Source: a virus (Duplodnaviria; Caudoviricetes). Taken from it: DNA of 64,000 nucleotides. The stretch covers positions 1 through 64,000 of IMG/VR virus record IMGVR_UViG_3300035498_000327. One strand, given 5' to 3'. The notes under the pieces are model-generated. The model did no database searches, was not told the DNA's origin, and saw only the letters and a list, made by a program, of their open reading frames with translations. Below, piece after piece: positions 3,963 through 52,298 of this stretch. The first letter of the stretch is position 1. Each line of letters opens with the position of its first letter. The translations under genes were made by a program, and so were the position numbers.

Positions 3963-5879
3963 ATGAATGGAAGAGCTGTAGACGCAGATATAAATACTTC
4001 TAGCACTAGAAGAACGTCTTCATCTAGTAGACCTAGAAAAGAGCCTACGATTCCTGGAGTTACATTAGATTCAGGAGGAGCAGAAGAAGCAGTTTCTCAT
4101 ATTCTTCCTAAGCAGGAGCAGCCAGTTCAGCAGGAGCATGGAACTAGACGTCGTGTAAGTATTTCAGACATTGTTCCAGATAAAGAAGAAAAGAAAGATA
4201 TCCCTGGAGTTACATTGCTTAAAAGCCCTCAGGATGAGATCCTTAAGCCAGGTGGAGTATTTGACCAGTATGTAGCAGAGAAGACAGAAGAAATGAGACA
4301 GAGAATGGCTGAAGAGGAAGCTAAGCGACAGGCAGCCATGGAAGAAGCAGAGCTCGGAGAAGATGAAGTAGATGAGTTCGGTGATGAGTTAGATGAGGAC
4401 GAGGCAGACATCTTATCTAATGAGGATGCACCGGCATCTGAGGCTTCTAATGTACACGTTAACTCAGTATCCAGAGATGATGTATCTAACTGGGAGGCCG
4501 AAGAAGAGGAAGAAGAGCCTGAAGTGGAGGATGAGGAAGAGAACTTCGAAGACGTAGAAGATTCAGAGGTCCCATTCTATCAGGCTATGAAAGAAAAAGG
4601 CTTCCAGGACGACTATGAGTATCCGGAGGAATATAATCTCCCCGAAGATAACTTCTTAGACGATGAAGAAGAAGTAGAAGATGAACCGACTGAAGAGGTT
4701 ATCGAAGACGACGAGGAAGACAATGAAACTCTGGATCATGAGCTGGGAGCTAAGAAGATTAGATTCGTTACAACAGATGACGAGTCTGTAGACGATATCG
4801 AGAAAGAAGTAGAATCTGATACCGGTGAGCCGTCTGATGATGAGAGACTTGAGGAACTTAGAGCTCAGATCGCTGAGAAGATTAAGCCTACGGCTAGGAA
4901 GCTTAGTCTTGAAGGCTGGACCGTAGCGAACAAAGCTACCGCTTCTAACAGAATCTTTGATACAACAGAGGCTTCCGCAGGTAAGTGGGTACTCCCGGCT
5001 ACTGGTATCTGCATTGAGATGAGAGAAATCTCCGGGCAGAAGATCGAGTACATCCGTGAAAATATGGGTAACAATCCGACAGCTGCAAGAAACCGGCTTA
5101 AAGTACTGTATGAGCACGTTACTACTCCTAAGCCACAGAGTTTTGAAGCTTGGACTAAGAGTATCGCTTATGCTGACTATGATCATTTGTTCATGCCTGT
5201 ATATCTGGCAGCATTCTCAGACTCTAACTACATTCCTCAGACATGTGAAATCGAGAAGAACAAGATTCCGCGTAAGGAAACTGGCTGTGGTAAGATGTTT
5301 ATTACCGATAATATCCCAATCATGAAGTGTGTGAAGTTCAAGGATAAGGAGTCTGAGTCAAAGTTTTGGAAGTTATATGACTCCGACAGAACAAACGCAG
5401 ACGGTCTGTATGCAACAGAAATTCTGCCTATCTCTGATAAGTTTGCTATCTCATTCAGAGATCCTTCCTTGTACAATATCTTCTTTGAGAGTGCTTCTTA
5501 CGGAAAGGAGTTCTCTGACAAGTACAACAACATTATTTCTATCATGCCATATATTGACAAAGTATATTGGCTGGATCACGCTAATATGAAGATGGTAGAA
5601 GTTACGTACAAGAAGTATGAGAACAACGCTGCTAAGACAGCTAAGTCAAAGGTAATTCGGTACTCTAAAGTATTCGATACATTCAGTACTGATGAGTATT
5701 CTAATATGCTCAATATCATCAACAGTATCTCTGACCGTGTTGACTGGATGTCATATCAGATTCCGGAGTTGACTTGCCCTGAGTGCGGCAGAGTAATCCC
5801 AGAAGAGCCACTTAGCGCTTCAGGACTGGTTTTTACACGGCATCGGTTGGGAATTTTAGCCAGTTCGTCGATAAATTAA
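3963..5879 (+). CDS. Acidic N-terminus plus baseplate hub/tail assembly chaperone-like domain (T4 gp26-like)
   Basis: 638-aa ORF; D/E-rich first half; internal Cys motif and C-terminal CPECG; lies between gp25-like and gp51-like genes. Confidence 0.4.
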   Translation: MNGRAVDADINTSSTRRTSSSSRPRKEPTIPGVTLDSGGAEEAVSHILPKQEQPVQQEHGTRRRVSISDIVPDKEEKKDIPGVTLLKSPQDEILKPGGVFDQYVAEKTEEMRQRMAEEEAKRQAAMEEAELGEDEVDEFGDELDEDEADILSNEDAPASEASNVHVNSVSRDDVSNWEAEEEEEEPEVEDEEENFEDVEDSEVPFYQAMKEKGFQDDYEYPEEYNLPEDNFLDDEEEVEDEPTEEVIEDDEEDNETLDHELGAKKIRFVTTDDESVDDIEKEVESDTGEPSDDERLEELRAQIAEKIKPTARKLSLEGWTVANKATASNRIFDTTEASAGKWVLPATGICIEMREISGQKIEYIRENMGNNPTAARNRLKVLYEHVTTPKPQSFEAWTKSIAYADYDHLFMPVYLAAFSDSNYIPQTCEIEKNKIPRKETGCGKMFITDNIPIMKCVKFKDKESESKFWKLYDSDRTNADGLYATEILPISDKFAISFRDPSLYNIFFESASYGKEFSDKYNNIISIMPYIDKVYWLDHANMKMVEVTYKKYENNAAKTAKSKVIRYSKVFDTFSTDEYSNMLNIINSISDRVDWMSYQIPELTCPECGRVIPEEPLSASGLVFTRHRLGILASSSIN

Positions 5880-5893
5880 GTTGTGTATGCAAC

Positions 5894-6139
5894 TTGATGA
5901 AAGGACGACTCACCATGGGTGAGCTAATGAACTTACCGAATAGGATCTTCCATACATTATACCATAACCACTATCTAGTAGAAGAAGCTCGTGCTAAACG
6001 AGAAGCAGAAGAAGCAAAGAAAGGAAAGTCTAGTTCTAACGGAAGGAAGTTCAGAAATCCTTTAGATGATATGACAGCTACTCAGATGGAGGACTTGGAA
6101 GATGAATTGGAGGATGCAGCCGAGGAGGGAATGCTATAG
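5894..6139 (+). CDS. Small T4 gp51-like hub assembly protein (start uncertain)
   Basis: MGELMNLPNRIFHTLY resembles the gp51-type motif. The frame is open upstream to 5816. Confidence 0.35.
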   Translation: MMKGRLTMGELMNLPNRIFHTLYHNHYLVEEARAKREAEEAKKGKSSSNGRKFRNPLDDMTATQMEDLEDELEDAAEEGML

Positions 6140-6451
6140 ATGGACAGAGTAGAGTATGCTCACTCTATAAACACTGGATCTTTAGATTTCAGCTCAGCTT
6201 TCATCAACTATTTCGATCAACTAATGGGCGTATATGGATTCATTCAACCATGTAACTACCAGATCGAGATAGTTAGTTCAAATAACAATATCCTTGTTCT
6301 GAATATGAAGTTCAAGGATGGAGAATCTGCATTGAAGATATGTAGTATCTTGAGTGCTTCAGATAGAGTGATGCAAATATATGGTAGAACTTTTAAGTTC
6401 GATGTGTACCATGTTTCATTAGATACAATTCAGTTACAGATAACAGAATAA
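6140..6451 (+). CDS. Hypothetical protein
   Basis: 103-aa ORF abutting the previous gene, followed by a terminator. Confidence 0.6.
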   Translation: MDRVEYAHSINTGSLDFSSAFINYFDQLMGVYGFIQPCNYQIEIVSSNNNILVLNMKFKDGESALKICSILSASDRVMQIYGRTFKFDVYHVSLDTIQLQITE

Positions 6452-6523: not shown

Positions 6524-8744
6524 ATGCTTGGATACAATAGCGTTATATCAGAGATAGATAGACTCATTGAGTCAAACCATTATTCCACTATCGATGAACT
6601 GCTTGAAATGGCTAACGATGTAATGGAAGAGGCTGTGCTTACAGAGATCGAGTATAACAAGGTAGTCAAACACCTTAAGCTTGAGATACTTGATATAGAC
6701 AGATTTGTATCTGCTAATGATTGTAAGCAGGTCACTAACCCAGTATTCTTTATTCGGAACAACATTCCTACAGATGATGGGTTACTGTCTAATACTATCT
6801 TTGGAATTACGAGAGATGATAGAGCTGGAATCTATGCTTACATTGACTTAGGAGGATGGTTTATAGACCCATCTTGTTATAAGACATGGATAAGAATGGA
6901 CTCCCACATTAAAGAAGTCATCCATGGGCTCGATACTTATACTGTGAATGAAGCAGGGGAGATAGTTCCTAGTGCTAGTGGCAGTAATGGTATAGACTTC
7001 ATCAAGAAGAATATAAATAAGATTAAGTTTAAGTCTACTGACTCTATCAAAAGAGACTTGAAGATACAGTACTTAGAGAAGAACAAGAACAGAATGTTTA
7101 TCAACAAGTATCTTGTCATACCACCATTCTATAGAGATACTAACACCGGTAAGAATGGTACTGTAGGTGTAGGTGGTGTGAATGTATTATATCGTAATCT
7201 TATCTTAGCAGTACAGGCTCTTAACTCTACACAAGATTATGGTTTCGACAACACTGGTACACTTAGAGCAAGAATCCAAGAAATACTTATGTCTATATAT
7301 GACTGGTTCTGTGGCAATACTAATGCTACTTCCTCTGTAGAACCAGGAGTAGGTATTGCCGGTAAGAAGGGTGTACTTCGTATGGCTAATATGAGTAAAA
7401 CAACTAACTATTCTTCTAGAATGGTTATAGCCGCACCGGAGTTAAAAGCAGAGACTGTAGACGACATGATGGTTAACCAAGAGCATACTGCTTTACCATT
7501 AGCCGCTTGCTTAGCTAACTATAGAAACTATATCATCTTTAACGCTAAGAGATTCTTTGAGCAAGAGTTCATCGGTAATGAGCAATACTTAGTGGTAAGG
7601 AAGAATGGTAAGAGAGAGTATGTGAATATGAAAGATCCCCTTATGGAATTCTCTGATGAGAAGATAAAGAGGGAAATGGACCGTTTCTTACACGGATATA
7701 ACAACAGATTCGTTCCGATATCAGTACCCTTAGAGGATGGAACTACTGTATACATGGCATTTAAAGGTAAGTTTAATAAGCCTGGAGAAGGCGAAGAGAG
7801 CTTATGTAAAAGAAGACTCACCTGGTGCGACGTATTCTATATCAGTGCAGTAGAAGCAGTCAGAGATAAGAATATTCTCATAGTAAGATATCCTGTACAG
7901 ATTGAAATCTTAAGACCTGCAGCATAACCTAAACCGAAAGGCATGGTATGAAAAACCCATCTAATGCTGGGAGAGGATAATGCTCATATGGCTATACTCA
8001 TAGTAGTCGAAAGACAGAAACAAATGTATGAGATTTCTATATGCTGAAAAGCTAAGTAGAATATGTAATTCCTTAATCAGCAGCGAAGTTAAACTTATAG
8101 TTTAATGTGCTCACAGATCATCGAAAGCTAGATACTCTTCATTGTCAGAAATGGCTAAACGCGAAACTCGGGAAGAGTTGAGAATAAGGTATAGAGATAT
8201 ACACGAAGCGAGTAGAGTAGAGCCTTATATAGGTACGGCATCCTGATATCAAGTAAGTCCGTTTAAATCGAAATGGTGGGATTAGGTATAATATGGTAAC
8301 AGTATATACCTAGTGTGATATGATCGGCATAAGTAAAATATGTGAGATAGTTATTTCAATCAGATAACAACGAAAGCAGTAGTGTCTTCTACTAAAGAAA
8401 CAGAGCCTATGTATATAGACGGTAAATACTATCCTTATTACCCTAAGATAAGGGAAGAGGATATAGGGTCTAATACCGGTAATACTTTCGTTGACACCCT
8501 TAAAATGAGTAACTTATACTTGGACGGTATGGGGGGGGACTATGATGGAGATACCGTTACGGCTAAGTCTCCTTATACGATTGAGTCTAATCAGGAGTTA
8601 GATGAGTTCATGAACTCTAAAGCTAACTTTATTAACTTAGGCGGTAATAACGTTAAGATAGTTAAGGCTGATACAGTACAGTCACTATACTCCCTTACTA
8701 AAGTACTTGATAAGTCTAAGCTTAAAGATCCGGTATTTGAATGA
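6524..8744 (+). CDS. Multisubunit RNA polymerase beta' N-terminal/catalytic subunit, spliced: join(6524..7896,8345..8744), 590 aa
   Basis: Motifs DGLLS..IFG, VIPPFYRD, GKKGVLR, NYSSRMVI, VRYP in exon 1; GGDYDGD catalytic motif in exon 2. Splicing restores RYPV-DSYFNQ in frame (1773 nt). Confidence 0.9.
7897..8344 (+). ncRNA. Group I intron (ORF-less, IA-like), 448 nt
   Basis: 5' exon ends in T and intron ends in G. IGS GCAGCAT (7919-7925) pairs with ATCCTGT. P3 CCCATC/GGTGGG; P7 CAGATCA (8114-8120)/TGATCG (8321-8326) with bulged A; AATCAGCAGC Q element. Confidence 0.88.
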
Positions 8745-47218: not shown

Positions 47219-48320
47219 TAGAGGAATGCTTGTTGAGGTTCATATAGCAGACTTACACTTTGCTGCTTTTGACCCTAAGACACAATTTGATATACTGCAA
47301 GAACAGTTCTTGAATGAGATAGCTACATACCCTAGGATAGATATAATAACTGTCCTAGGGGATATTTTTGATCATAAGCTGATGTCTAACTCTGATGGAA
47401 CTATGTTTGCAGTTCAGTTTATTGACAGACTTATTGGAATAGCTAGAGCTAAGAATGCTACAGTAGTATTGCTTGCTGGTACCATGAGTCATGACTCAAA
47501 TCAGCTTAAGTTATTCTATCACTATGTCAACGACCCTACTGTTGATGTAAGGGTAGTAACCACGTTACAATTCGAGATGATTAAGGGAGCTAGAGTACTA
47601 TGTATACCAGAACTATATGGGTTAGATGAGAATATCTACAGACAACACTTGTTCGGAAGCGGATGGTATGACTCCGCTTTCATGCATGGTACGTTTAAAG
47701 GAGCAGTATATGGAGATACAGTAGGTAATGGAAGACTGTTTAGAATAGAGGACTTCATAAACTGTAGCGGCCCTATCATCTCTGGTCATGTACATAATGC
47801 TGGCTGCTTTGATGGATACTTCTACTATTGTGGGTGCCCATATAGATGGAAGTTCGGAGAAGAACAAGAAAAGGGTTTTATCGTGTTAATACACGATTTA
47901 GACTCCGGAGCGCATTATGTACATTTTAACAAGATTGAGAGCTTCAGATTTGATACAATTTACGTCGACGAACTGACTAATGCAGACCCTAAAGCGATAA
48001 TCGATTACATAAATGACCTTAAGTATAGAAGAGGTATAGACTTCATTAAGGTTAGATTTAGGGTCCCAGTAACAGGAGCTAGTAAGACTATCATCAGTAA
48101 CTACTACAGAAACATTAACGATACTACTGTGGAGTTTCTTGATGTAGAGGAAGAGCAAAAGAAGAAGATGGAGGATAAAGTAAAGAACTCAGAGTACGAC
48201 TTCTTAGTCAGTGATCAGTATACTGATATGGAAAAGTTCATTATGTACGTGAACCATCAGGAGCAATCACAGTTTATCACAGTAGACCAACTAAGAGCAT
48301 TATTAGAGGAGGAGGTATAA
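47202..48320 (+). CDS. sbcD: SbcD/Mre11-like metallophosphoesterase nuclease
   Basis: ADLH, GDIFD, GTMSHD, HGT, GHVH motifs. Confidence 0.85.
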   Translation: MTPNYNRGMLVEVHIADLHFAAFDPKTQFDILQEQFLNEIATYPRIDIITVLGDIFDHKLMSNSDGTMFAVQFIDRLIGIARAKNATVVLLAGTMSHDSNQLKLFYHYVNDPTVDVRVVTTLQFEMIKGARVLCIPELYGLDENIYRQHLFGSGWYDSAFMHGTFKGAVYGDTVGNGRLFRIEDFINCSGPIISGHVHNAGCFDGYFYYCGCPYRWKFGEEQEKGFIVLIHDLDSGAHYVHFNKIESFRFDTIYVDELTNADPKAIIDYINDLKYRRGIDFIKVRFRVPVTGASKTIISNYYRNINDTTVEFLDVEEEQKKKMEDKVKNSEYDFLVSDQYTDMEKFIMYVNHQEQSQFITVDQLRALLEEEV

Positions 48321-48321
48321 T

Positions 48322-48498
48322 ATGGATATTAGAGTAAAAACTAGTGGTTCCGTTTTCTTTCCGAAGTACTTTAAGAATTGGAAAGTAGAAGCTTTCCGTA
48401 AGGCTCATAAGGAAGGCAAGATTGAGTTTGAGACCGTGTATCAGTTTTGCAGTAACAAGCTTAAGCCTGTAGTGAAAATTAAAGCTAAGGAGGAATAA
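48322..48498 (+). CDS. 58-aa basic protein
   Basis: GGAGG SD; MDIRVKTSGSVFFPKYF...; not in the ORF track. Confidence 0.55.
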   Translation: MDIRVKTSGSVFFPKYFKNWKVEAFRKAHKEGKIEFETVYQFCSNKLKPVVKIKAKEE

Positions 48499-48502
48499 GA
48501 AT

Positions 48503-48772
48503 ATGATTATAGCTATACACGTATCTGATGATGAAATCACTTATACGGATAAAGTGCAGAAACTAGTTGATGGTTTCGTAGAACCAAAGAAAGAAAGTGC
48601 ACATGAAACTAGGGAAGAGATCAAGGAAGCATTATCAGATATCCTGGGCATTAAAGTTAATGATGTAACGCTTGTCGGTAATGAATTGCTTCGGTTAATT
48701 GGGCACTATATTGAAAAAACGGAATACAATATGAGAAGTCTCAGTGCTTTAATTTCAGTCTTTAAAGACTAA
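48503..48772 (+). CDS. Hypothetical protein
   Basis: 89 aa, AGGAGG SD. Confidence 0.6.
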   Translation: MIIAIHVSDDEITYTDKVQKLVDGFVEPKKESAHETREEIKEALSDILGIKVNDVTLVGNELLRLIGHYIEKTEYNMRSLSALISVFKD

Positions 48773-48778
48773 TGAACA

Positions 48779-49163
48779 GGTGGAGATCGTTGCGCTTGGT
48801 GGCTTCGATGTGCTTATGCTGGTAGTTATGTGCAAACTTGTAGCTGTTCTTATAGTGGTGATCCTGCATATGAATGGTACGTTACTAATACTAAAATTTG
48901 TGTGCCGCTGGTGGAGATCGTTGCGCTTGGTGGCTTCGATGTGCTTATGCTGGTAGTTCTACAGTAGCTTGTTCTGCTGGAGGTGTTGGTAGTACTGAGC
49001 GTAATGCTATTTCTTCTAAATATGGTGTACCGCTGGTGGAGGTCGTTGCAGTTGGTGGCTCCGAGATGCTTGTGCTGGTAATACTGTTAATGCTTGTTGT
49101 ATTGGTGCTGGTGCATGTATTCCTTCATACTATGGGGTAAAAGATACTTACGTTGGTGTGCCG
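48779..49163 (+). repeat. Array block 1: three head-to-tail DGR variable-region-like cassettes (48779-48907, 48910-49032, 49035-49163)
   Basis: Each reads GG(D/G)RC(A/S)WWLR.A.AG...C...(C/G)VP; junctions are CCGCT|GGTGGAG. Confidence 0.85.
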
Positions 49164-49183
49164 ATTAGAAGGAGGTGATACTT

Positions 49184-49462
49184 TTGCATTCTAAGGTTAA
49201 TTATATTATTGATCAAACTTTACGTACTCTAGGTGTAGAATTAGAGGTATTCGATAAACTGAATAAGATTGTCAAGATATCTGTCCCTAAAGAATCTTGG
49301 GATTATGTAGAAAGAGACCTGGATTCTGAAGCACTGGCTAAGAACATAAAGAGGTCTTTTATACAACTACGTTTCATCGATGATAGCTGGAAGTTCTCCT
49401 ATAGAGTAAGTAATAAAGTATGGACTAAAGAAGAGTATATGAAAGTAAGAAGTAAGACTTAA
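49184..49462 (+). CDS. Hypothetical 92-aa protein between the two cassette blocks
   Basis: AGGAGGTGA SD then TTG at 49184. Confidence 0.6.
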   Translation: MHSKVNYIIDQTLRTLGVELEVFDKLNKIVKISVPKESWDYVERDLDSEALAKNIKRSFIQLRFIDDSWKFSYRVSNKVWTKEEYMKVRSKT

Positions 49463-49472
49463 AGATATTAAA

Positions 49473-49735
49473 GGTGGAGGTCGTAGCAGTTGGTGGCTCC
49501 GGAGTGCTAGTGCTGGTACTTATATTAGTGCTTGTAGTATTAGTTCTGATCATCCTTCTAATCTTCAGGTGAATTTAAATTCTGATATTAAATTTTGTGT
49601 GCCGCTGGTGGAGGTCGTTGCAGTTGGTGGCTCCGATGTGCTGTTGCTGGTAAGTTTGATAGATCTTGTGCTTGTAACGTTACTAATTGCGCTATATCAC
49701 TTGGTGTTAGTGATGCTGGAGATGTTGTTGTGCCG
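49473..49735 (+). repeat. Array block 2: two more cassettes (49473-49604, 49607-49735)
   Basis: GGGRSSWWLRSASAG...FCVP and GGGRCSWWLRCAVAG...VVVP; same junction. Confidence 0.85.
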
Positions 49736-49794
49736 CAGGTTACAAATCTATATGAGTTATGACATACTTGTAAAATTAAAGGAGGTAGGATTAC

Positions 49795-50403
49795 ATGAAA
49801 AAACATATCATTGTGATAAACGGTAAAGGTGGATGTGGCAAGGATACCCTTATAAACCAGGCTAAACAAGCGTTTAAAGTCTGGAATATTAGTTCTATTG
49901 ATCCAGTTAAGGATATTGCTAGGCAGCTTGGTTATAAAGAAGAAAACAAGGATGATAAGTCTAGGAAATTTCTGTCTGACTTGAAGAAATTGATTGTAGA
50001 GTGGAATGACACACCTCTTAGATACTGCATAGATCAGACTAAGTCATTCATTTATTCCACTATTGGTTCTTTATTGTTTGTCCATATCAGAGAACCGGAG
50101 GAGATACAGAAGTATGTTAAAGCCGTAAAGGCAATCATCAATGAGCTTGAGGAGGTAGAAGATATAGACAAAAACAGTGTTAAAGTTCATACACTTCTTG
50201 TCATGAGACCTCTTACTGACACAAAAACGTATGGAAACCCATCAGATGATGGGGTGGAGGAGTTTAAATATGACTTTGTCTTTAATAACAACGAGACTAA
50301 TGAGTTAATCGCTAGGTACTCTTTCGTTATCTTCTTGGAACAGAACATAGTAAACCCTTATATCTATCAGAAACAGAAGGAAAACCGAGAAGGTAAGCTC
50401 TAG
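49795..50403 (+). CDS. P-loop nucleotide kinase (dNMP kinase-like)
   Basis: INGKGGCGKDT Walker A; FVHIREPEE. Confidence 0.7.
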   Translation: MKKHIIVINGKGGCGKDTLINQAKQAFKVWNISSIDPVKDIARQLGYKEENKDDKSRKFLSDLKKLIVEWNDTPLRYCIDQTKSFIYSTIGSLLFVHIREPEEIQKYVKAVKAIINELEEVEDIDKNSVKVHTLLVMRPLTDTKTYGNPSDDGVEEFKYDFVFNNNETNELIARYSFVIFLEQNIVNPYIYQKQKENREGKL

Positions 50404-50477
50404 GGCTTACCTTTTTTGCCTCTTCATATGAGACAAACACATTAATAATCGTGAGAAAAGTTAGGGGATAGATATCA

Positions 50478-52298
50478 ATGAAAGTAAAAAGAAACAGTGG
50501 ATACAAGTCCATTAAAGATAAACCTATCAAACTCGTTTTAGATATAAATACCCTTGATATAATGTGTAGGTATGCAATCTCTAGTTCTAGTTTAATTAGA
50601 ATGAGTCATGTGACTAATCTTAGAAAACTAGTTACTTCATTAGACCGTTCTACATATGAGAACGACCCAGAGAAGAAGAAGAGAATTGAGTTCATGGAGA
50701 AAGCACTTGAAGCAAGAATCGAATATCATCTTACAGATAGGAATATGATATTGAGTCATGCTAACGGAACTTTACCATTTGAACTCGATTTTGTAGACTA
50801 TAAATCGCCTGAGCTAAATAAGAATGAGTTAGCTTGGGTGAATCAGTTGATATCTGAAACTATACAGTACAATTTTATGTACGATAAGATGCCTCAGTTA
50901 CAAGATATATGCACAAGATTCAATTCTTCCGACTACTCCACTAGGGGAGGCATTGTAAAAGAGTTTGAGAAATTAATAGATGAGTTAAAGAACGATTTTA
51001 GGCATTCTAAGGTAGAGAATAACAGTAACGAAATGACTTTCTCGCTTCGTGAAGGGGTGTTTGAGTCATGCGTTACTGACGTATATAACACGATAACTAA
51101 TCCGAACCATAGACTTATAAGTGGTATGAGTGGATTGAATGAAATGATAGGAGGTGGATTTGAATCTGGTAGAGTTTATATGCTGTTTGGTATTGGAGGT
51201 ATTGGTAAGTCTCTTACGTTACTTAACCTCTTAACCCAGATAAAGAAGTATAATACAAATTATAAGACTAAGGACCCAACTAAGACTCCTTGTGTAGTTC
51301 TACTTACAATGGAAAACACAATGATTGATACAATCAGTAGATTGTTTTCATTGGTTGATAATGGAGTAGGATATATCGGTGATTACACATTAGATGAAGT
51401 TATTAATATACTTAGGACCAGCGGCAGATTAGTTGTAAATTCTGAGTCTCCAATAGATATAGTAGTTAAGTATCGCCCGAATAAGTCAGAAGATACGAGT
51501 TACTTCTACACATTGTGTGATGACTTAGAGGACGATGGTTATGAAGTGATATGCTTTATCCAGGACCATATCAAGAGAATAAGATCAATCTATGGTAATC
51601 CAGACATAAGAATAGAGTTAGGTGATATTGTAAATGAAATGAAGGTATTCGCAGCAGACAGAGATATACCAGTCATTTCAGTATCTCATTTGAATCGAGA
51701 TGCAACTAAGATAGTAGAAGATGGAGCAGCAAAAGGTGGTACTACAGATATTACCCTTAAGATGGGTAAGTCTAATGTAGGTGAGTCACTATTGATGATA
51801 GACAACCTTGACTGTGGCATCATCATAAATCTTGACTTTGATCAAGATGGTAATAGATATCTTTGCTATAACTTGATTAAGATGAGAGATAAGACAGCAA
51901 GAACTTACATAGCACAGCCATTCACCTATGGTTCAACTATAAGACTTGCAGAAGATGTAGGACAAGTTCCGGTATTCAAAGAGTCACTTCATATGGCTCC
52001 TGGTTTGAATAGGAATAGTTCTATCAGAACTAACTCAGCAACTACTATTATGAATCTTGATACTATCATCAATGATAGCGACAGTGATATGGACAATGCA
52101 TTTTCTAATGCTTCCATCTATTATGATTTGAATAAGACAGTAGAAGAAGCACCAGAGAGAGAAATCATATGCCCAATTTACTTCATAGAAGATAGTAAGC
52201 CAGACTTGTCTAAGCTTAACATACTTAAGGATAAGATTAGACAAATGAGAGTACCAGAAGAAGTAACAATAGAACCAGAACTGTTTATGATAGGATAG
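50478..52298 (+). CDS. dnaB: DnaB-like replicative helicase
   Basis: GIGGIGKS, TMEN, FIQDHIKRI, SHLNR, NLIKMR. Confidence 0.85.
   Translation: MKVKRNSGYKSIKDKPIKLVLDINTLDIMCRYAISSSSLIRMSHVTNLRKLVTSLDRSTYENDPEKKKRIEFMEKALEARIEYHLTDRNMILSHANGTLPFELDFVDYKSPELNKNELAWVNQLISETIQYNFMYDKMPQLQDICTRFNSSDYSTRGGIVKEFEKLIDELKNDFRHSKVENNSNEMTFSLREGVFESCVTDVYNTITNPNHRLISGMSGLNEMIGGGFESGRVYMLFGIGGIGKSLTLLNLLTQIKKYNTNYKTKDPTKTPCVVLLTMENTMIDTISRLFSLVDNGVGYIGDYTLDEVINILRTSGRLVVNSESPIDIVVKYRPNKSEDTSYFYTLCDDLEDDGYEVICFIQDHIKRIRSIYGNPDIRIELGDIVNEMKVFAADRDIPVISVSHLNRDATKIVEDGAAKGGTTDITLKMGKSNVGESLLMIDNLDCGIIINLDFDQDGNRYLCYNLIKMRDKTARTYIAQPFTYGSTIRLAEDVGQVPVFKESLHMAPGLNRNSSIRTNSATTIMNLDTIINDSDSDMDNAFSNASIYYDLNKTVEEAPEREIICPIYFIEDSKPDLSKLNILKDKIRQMRVPEEVTIEPELFMIG

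Follow-up and report, generated by a model that had tools for sequence, protein, structure and literature searches.

Five tandem cassettes in a lineage-specific insertion

The window analyzed here is a 64,000-nucleotide stretch (positions 1 to 64,000) of the virus record IMGVR_UViG_3300035498_000327, a contig of 72,707 bp estimated to be 29% complete. Among cultured phages, Bacillus phages AR9 and PBS1 come closest (∼36% identity), and a megablast search against GenBank phages gave no match. The locus under study lies in the replication module of this giant phage, among genes for an exonuclease, an SbcD-like nuclease, a dNMP-kinase-like protein, a DnaB helicase, and an RNA polymerase beta subunit. 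There, an array of five related cassettes is arranged in two blocks on the + strand, in the orientation of the flanking genes, with units U1 to U3 at 48779-49165 and units U4 and U5 at 49473-49737. The features are as follows (a slash marks the boundary between two units).

48321..49794, + strand: lineage-specific insertion of 1.47 kb, with 58-aa, 89-aa, and 92-aa ORFs and both cassette blocks, between the SbcD-like nuclease and dNMP-kinase-like genes (by synteny with the relative G001, see below)
48503..48772, + strand: 89-aa ORF, matching no known family, directly upstream of block 1
48779..48909, + strand: U1 cassette, 131 nt, a variable-repeat-like copy with frame 0 open, DUF6273 profile positions 128-155
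48905..48916, + strand: U1/U2 junction, CCGCT/GGTGGAG, with the identical 12-mer at 49030-49041 and 49602-49613
48910..49034, + strand: U2 cassette, 125 nt, first 49 nt as in U1, core 2 codons shorter
49035..49165, + strand: U3 cassette, 131 nt, final unit of block 1, with the 3' end CCGAT and then running into the ribosome-binding site of the next gene
49184..49462, + strand: 92-aa ORFan between the blocks, with a TTG start after AGGAGGT, absent from G001
49473..49606, + strand: U4 cassette, 134 nt, core 1 codon longer, both framework Cys codons changed to Ser
49607..49737, + strand: U5 cassette, 131 nt, first 30 nt as in U3, 3' end CCGCA

A repeat search recovered the array as one repeat family with spacings of 131, 125, 438, and 134, and a 29-nt motif from the 5' part of the units occurred five times against zero occurrences expected by chance. 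There was no sixth copy of the unit in the whole 72.7-kb contig, nor did this contig contain a target gene, a template repeat (TR), or a PF00078 RT.

Through the full-length target proteins described below, we reached a relative, IMGVR_UViG_3300035520_000350 (here G001; 242,978 bp, 99% complete), whose DnaB is 78% identical to that of the window. The SbcD-like gene, the kinase gene, and DnaB are directly consecutive in G001. Since the SbcD-like and kinase genes abut there, the region 48321-49794 is an insertion specific to the lineage of the window. The comparison of orthologous loci proposed in an earlier note on this DNA thus found no array at the corresponding site of G001, and none was present elsewhere in that genome. 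The insertion site looks like a hotspot in the replication module.

All three small genes inside the insertion are without relatives. There is no homology between the 89-aa and 92-aa ORFs, and neither matches a family; a search of 5.8 billion proteins with the 92-aa ORF returned only the query itself. As the earlier note had pointed out, both blocks start just past the stop codon of a small gene, U1 6 nt after the TAA of ORF 48503-48772 and U4 10 nt after the TAA of ORF 49184-49462. The former ORF and the open frame of U1 are in the same reading frame, with TAA TGA ACA between them (48770-48781), whereas block 2 is not in frame with its upstream gene. Scans for promoters and terminators were unremarkable, and no tRNA was detected. 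A weak RAGATH-35 match inside the 89-aa ORF (48536-48604, minus strand; 21.7 bits versus a gathering score of 38.9; E, 0.34) is most likely due to chance.

The cassettes resemble DGR variable repeats

The frame-0 peptides of all five units matched the C-terminal part of DUF6273 (PF19789), at profile positions ∼128 to 165 of 172. These matches were individually weak (E of 0.01 to 0.09, each below the curated cutoff) and had the same location in 5/5 units. DUF6273 is a C-type-lectin-like domain diversified by the DGRs of Firmicutes phages, with a C-terminal variable repeat (VR) (PMC10743442, PMC11792537, bioRxiv 10.1101/2024.10.15.618418). We built a profile from the five units and searched it against 1.84 billion and then 5.8 billion proteins, which yielded three kinds of matches: short Asn-rich ORFs, which are translated TRs; full-length DUF6273 (PF19789) proteins of 270 to 314 aa with the same framework at their C terminus; and short ORFs of other contigs that span cassette junctions. 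Two of the full-length proteins, P0006 and P0007, are 96% identical and differ almost exclusively between Gly-Gly-Arg and Gly-Val-Pro-Leu, which is the span of one unit. Within 20 kb of P0006-like target loci (L013 and L014), no TR was found.

The composition of the units is also that of a VR. They are poor in Asn (4%), hence of VR type rather than TR type, and T occupies the third codon position in 68% of their codons, compared to 41% expected from amino-acid content and phage codon usage. This NNT excess is, as judged from codon composition, a fingerprint of DGR mutagenesis (AAT-to-NNT). With the DUF6273 match in 5/5 units and the NNT excess, the view of the units as DGR variable-repeat-like sequences was supported. 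In the variable columns of the unit alignment, which has no TR on the contig for comparison, A and G are equally frequent (8/10 each).

Frame 0 contains no stop and no frameshift in 214 codons, against 5.8 stops expected (P = 0.0015 in codon-position-preserving shuffles), and all length differences among units are whole codons (multiples of 3). The units have neither a start codon nor a DUF6273 body, TAA TGA precedes U1, and successive units are out of frame with each other: as previously noted, the unit periods of 131, 125, and 134 nt are each 2 mod 3, and the units never fuse in frame. None of them terminates an expressed target gene, as a functional VR would. We read the units as coding-type sequence that is not translated as such. 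The five would be untranslated DNA copies of a DGR-target VR, equivalent to the C-terminal ∼43 codons of a receptor-binding protein with the C-type-lectin-like DUF6273 domain.

Identical junctions, shared 5' ends, and divergent cores

The three internal junctions are identical, CCGCT/GGTGGAG in each case, and the shared 5' prefixes are real, with 49/49 nt in common between U1 and U2 and the first 30 nt in common between U3 and U5; both observations of the earlier note were reproduced. Its description of the 3' parts as fully divergent applies to the cores, which are 35 to 45% identical (chance level), and not to the last 14 nt, which are 71 to 79% conserved.

We compared the cores of the equal-length units U1, U3, and U5 over columns 47 to 117. 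In addition to the low overall identity, their identity at codon position 3 was no higher than composition predicts. The TR core of G001 is 43% A, and two products of such a TR are at least 57% identical. The observed 35 to 45% therefore shows that the cores are not siblings of one G001-like TR. The cores of U2 and U4 differ in length by -2 and +1 codons, respectively, and G001 itself has three tips of different length. On these alignments, the cores are best described as separate alleles from different templates or paralogous tips and not as the outcome of re-homing of a single TR on a duplicated unit.

The shared prefixes are real replacement or recombination breakpoints. They end after column 49 (U1/U2) and after column 30 (U3/U5), that is, in or at the edge of a 46-nt conserved 5' tract, which is the longest stretch of homology between units. 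At its 3' end, U1 groups with U4 and not with U2. Recombination, either among cassettes or with a live VR, would account for this mosaic no less well than retrohoming in the 3'-to-5' direction.

The unit ends do not coincide with the template-repeat ends of two reference DGRs

A canonical DGR lies ∼60 kb from DnaB in G001; its components are a 554-aa RT, a single TR, an Mtd_N protein, and three DUF6273 paralogues. At this locus (L083, G001:C1:220000-238000, minus strand), the RT occupies 4657-6321 and the TR about 6681-6800; the paralogues have 289, 294, and 292 aa, and the TR is matched only by the tip of the 289-aa gene, the other two tips being different in length and without a template. 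The homology between the TR and VR1 spans 127 nt, with an A in the TR at nearly every mismatch of the printed alignment, and a 13-bp GC hairpin lies ∼20 nt 3' of VR1. The VR and TR of Roseburia phage Shimadzu (LR596903), our second reference, have 129 nt, and 17/18 mismatches fall at TR adenines.

The fixed ends of the units had been taken as the mark of a defined RNA or cDNA unit, which raised the question of whether they match the TR boundaries and the IMH. Checked against both DGRs, the ends were offset, by 12 nt (5') and 13 nt (3') from the G001 TR and by about 4 nt (5') and 9 nt (3') from the Shimadzu TR, and the distal segment was absent. Over the 12 nt preceding the 5' boundary of the TR, a seven-way alignment showed that the units match VR1 of G001 and not its TR (GGTGGAGGTCGT versus GGAGGACGT in VR1); GGAGG.CGT is common to the units and VR1, and the TR diverges there. 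On the other side, the unit 3' end CCGCT lies 13 nt before the end of the TR/VR homology in G001. No spacer sequence was found within the units. As the units contain 12 nt of target-gene-only sequence and end 13 nt short, they were probably copied from the VR DNA of a target gene and not from TR cDNA, provided that the TR of this phage resembles that of G001. Compared to the G001 DGR, the idea of an RNA/cDNA unit thus fails.

Retrohoming of BPP-1 requires the distal repeat end (IMH) and a downstream hairpin/cruciform, which are also sufficient (PMC3240598). The units lack a complete IMH as well as the hairpin, since no GC-rich inverted repeat or hairpin follows any unit in 48000-50500. With the distal segment and the hairpin missing, the cassettes do not have the appearance of canonical targets for retrohoming. 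The suggestion that the array itself is an active DGR target was not supported, in view of these absences, of the U1 and U2 cores being 6 nt apart in length, and of the chance-level identity of the cores.

Related arrays and identity to an expressed variable repeat

Similar arrays recur on several unrelated contigs. Their junctions were deduced from predicted ORFs reading across them, on contigs of 36,040 bp (P0001/P0005) and 13,418 bp (P0004/P0010/P0020). In P0005, one junction agrees in phase and residues with those of the window array, and another, further upstream, belongs to a unit that keeps ∼9 nt more of its native tail and so extends close to the end of the TR. A different junction, of +9 nt, occurs in P0013. 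In P0010 and P0002, the reading frame passes from 1 to 0 to 2, which corresponds to periods of 1 mod 3 and to junctions 1 nt shorter. The related arrays thus display at least four junction forms other than that of the window. None of about five independent junction types is in frame (0 mod 3), an absence without statistical significance (about 0.13 by chance). The junctions are uniform in the window array and vary from one array to another, a pattern suggestive of founder junctions that spread through unequal recombination and later acquired small indels.

One cassette of P0005, which is flanked by other cassettes, is identical over 44/44 residues, including every hypervariable position, to the VR at the C terminus of P0020, a full-length target of 292 aa, and the flanks of the two differ on both sides. 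This identity within different flanks implies that whole tips have been copied between an array and an expressed gene in this phage group. The copying may have gone in either direction, or both sequences may be recent copies of a third one.

When viral contigs were scanned for the unit motif at the DNA level, no match was obtained, and metagenome contigs gave only chance matches in high-GC DNA. Searches for related loci with the unit alignment, P0005, or P0020 likewise returned nothing from viral contigs. Fifty-two other viral records with DUF6273 targets had no array and contained at most three matches each (the VRs plus the TR).

A putative store of silent tip alleles

We favor an explanation to which we would give an even chance of being correct, namely, that the array is a duplicated, recombining store of silent tip alleles copied from the VR DNA of a DGR target. 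A single head-to-tail duplication would have made the founder junction, possibly at a 3- to 4-nt GCT(G) microhomology between the VR end and the preceding Ala-Gly-Gly codons, a microhomology read from the amino-acid sequence of P0020 and not from the DNA of the window phage. Unequal recombination would then have copied the same junction, whose identity would be inherited and would not be the mark of repeated precise insertions, and recombination inside the 46-nt conserved tract would have produced the shared 5' prefixes. Any tandem array that descends from one founder duplication shows identical junctions, so their exactness is uninformative about a retro-mechanism, and the inference of such a mechanism in the earlier note was largely not borne out. 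The silent alternative tips would be swapped with the live VR by recombination, an exchange seen in related contigs and not in the window phage. From these relatives we infer both the donor function and the TR boundaries for the window phage, and a silent store of alternative tips is accordingly the most likely role that we can propose for the array. As a caveat for a donor role, the units would share only ∼12 nt of 3' homology with a live VR, a short tract for homologous recombination.

A more elaborate possibility, which we consider doubtful, is that the array serves as an allele bank in active use. Whole ready-made tips of different loop lengths would pass from the silent cassettes into the DGR-target receptor-binding gene of the phage, and host-range variation would have two tiers, cassette swap and adenine hypermutation; the swap might use the DGR RT on cassette-containing transcripts. 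Conversely, the array is dispensable, as G001 manages without one and 0/53 other DUF6273-target viral records have more than three matches, and it could be debris. We judge it rather unlikely that the cassettes are functionless, decaying duplicated 3' fragments of a target gene in a hypervariable insertion hotspot with ORFans. Besides the absence of the array from the closest complete relative and from these 53 records, such decay would agree with the ORFans on the array flanks and with the junctions of related arrays, which vary by 1-nt and 9-nt indels as if unconstrained. However, frame 0 is intact throughout the 214 codons, conserved flanks surround saturated cores, similar arrays occur on several unrelated contigs, and one cassette is identical to an expressed VR (P0005/P0020), all of which argue against debris.

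The remaining explanations involve the DGR machinery more directly or dispense with it. That the cassettes are active DGR targets, in which partial retrohoming from the 3' end after duplication replaced the cores but spared the shared 5' prefixes, seems improbable to us. The polarity fits, as identity is kept in 5' and lost toward 3' in both U1/U2 and U3/U5, the NNT excess is as expected, and the units keep the first half of the conserved 3' segment (GTGCCGCT). The two elements needed in BPP-1 (PMC3240598) are nevertheless lacking, namely, the distal 13 nt of the VR/TR homology and a hairpin comparable to the 13-bp GC hairpin at VR1 of G001; moreover, the core of U2 is 6 nt shorter than that of U1, and third codon positions of equal-length cores match only at chance. 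A cDNA concatemer formed by RT template jumping, or the stepwise site-specific addition of TR-length cDNA, is very improbable, given the 12 nt of the units that are absent from the TR of the relative, the missing spacer, and an Asn content of VR type and not TR type, even though unit lengths of 125 to 134 nt are close to the 127 nt of the TR in G001 and the 129 nt of that in Shimadzu and a longer junction type in relatives, inferred from P0005, nearly reaches the TR 3' end. We attach the least credence to the units encoding small products of their own, whether hydrophobic frame-1 peptides, a 9-codon frame-2 mini-ORF behind a GGAGGT-like motif, or a small RNA. Frame 1 does give conservative V/I/L changes and every unit has GGAGGT with a TTG 8 nt further on, but frame 1 contains 4 stops and has no ribosome-binding site, frame 2 contains 30 stops, no RNA structure signal was obtained, and the conservation is explained by the frame-0 homology to DUF6273.

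Comparison with known systems

The units are similar to canonical DGR VR/TR pairs with DUF6273 targets (G001; Shimadzu, LR596903; Faecalibacterium phages, PMC11792537; tentaclins, PMC10743442) in VR family, length, and NNT-type codons. With the targets themselves they share the framework Gly-Gly-x-Arg-Cys, the WWLR motif, the terminal Val-Pro-Leu, and homology to the DUF6273 C terminus. Unlike canonical VRs, they form five tandem copies without gene body, start codon, or hairpin, and their conserved 3' segment is truncated; the array is also ∼60 kb (by synteny) from the position of the DGR in the relative, and its cores are too different for one TR. By sequence, the units belong to the DUF6273 VR family, yet they lack three defining features of a functional DGR target. 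Ordinary microhomology duplication with unequal crossing-over shares with the array the identical junctions, the breakpoints in the longest homology tract, and the variable copy number and junction indels among relatives. In contrast to neutral tandem duplicates, however, the cores are saturated, the flanks are conserved, and the frame is preserved.

Neisseria pilE/pilS and Borrelia vlsE with its vls cassettes are bacterial silent-cassette gene-conversion systems. Like pilS and vls, the array consists of promoterless partial copies of a surface-protein gene, restricted to its variable part and placed head to tail, with conserved flanks, divergent cores, and open frames; its units have the makeup of a silent library, being partial, promoterless, tandem, in-frame copies. 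It differs from these systems in that there is no expression site on the contig, transfer is seen only in relatives, and the locus is phage-borne and layered on a retroelement mutator. By analogy, its arrangement would work most like that of the bacterial silent-cassette loci. A full-text literature search found no published description of tandem arrays of silent VR cassettes. DGRs are thought to diversify the tip only at template adenines and from a single template. Silent arrays of framework-diverse tips, if real, would add stored recombinable alleles in the manner of bacterial antigenic-variation cassettes, and such stored alleles would widen the host-range space that the phage can reach.

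Other features of the units

Each unit starts (48779-48826 in U1 and at the same place in the others) with GGAGGT, which resembles a ribosome-binding site and is followed, after 8 nt, by TTG GTG and a frame-2 mini-ORF of 6 to 9 codons that ends in a conserved TGG TAA/TAG; this mini-ORF is probably a by-product of conserved codons. A structured RNA was considered and rejected, as there was no Rfam family at the gathering or a relaxed threshold, folding z-scores ranged from -0.45 to +0.64, and 0 compensatory pairs were counted.

In U4 only (49485-49508), both framework Cys codons read Ser (TGC to AGC and TGT to AGT). Both are T-to-A substitutions at sites where the TR of G001 has no adenine, and the paired loss of the Cys codons would fit a disulfide pair. 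In U1 (48851-48862) and in the expressed VR1 of G001, the same residues, Gly-Asp-Pro-Ala, are found where the TR of G001 encodes Gly-Asn-Pro-Asn; this coincidence at two hypervariable codons could reflect chance or shared selection.
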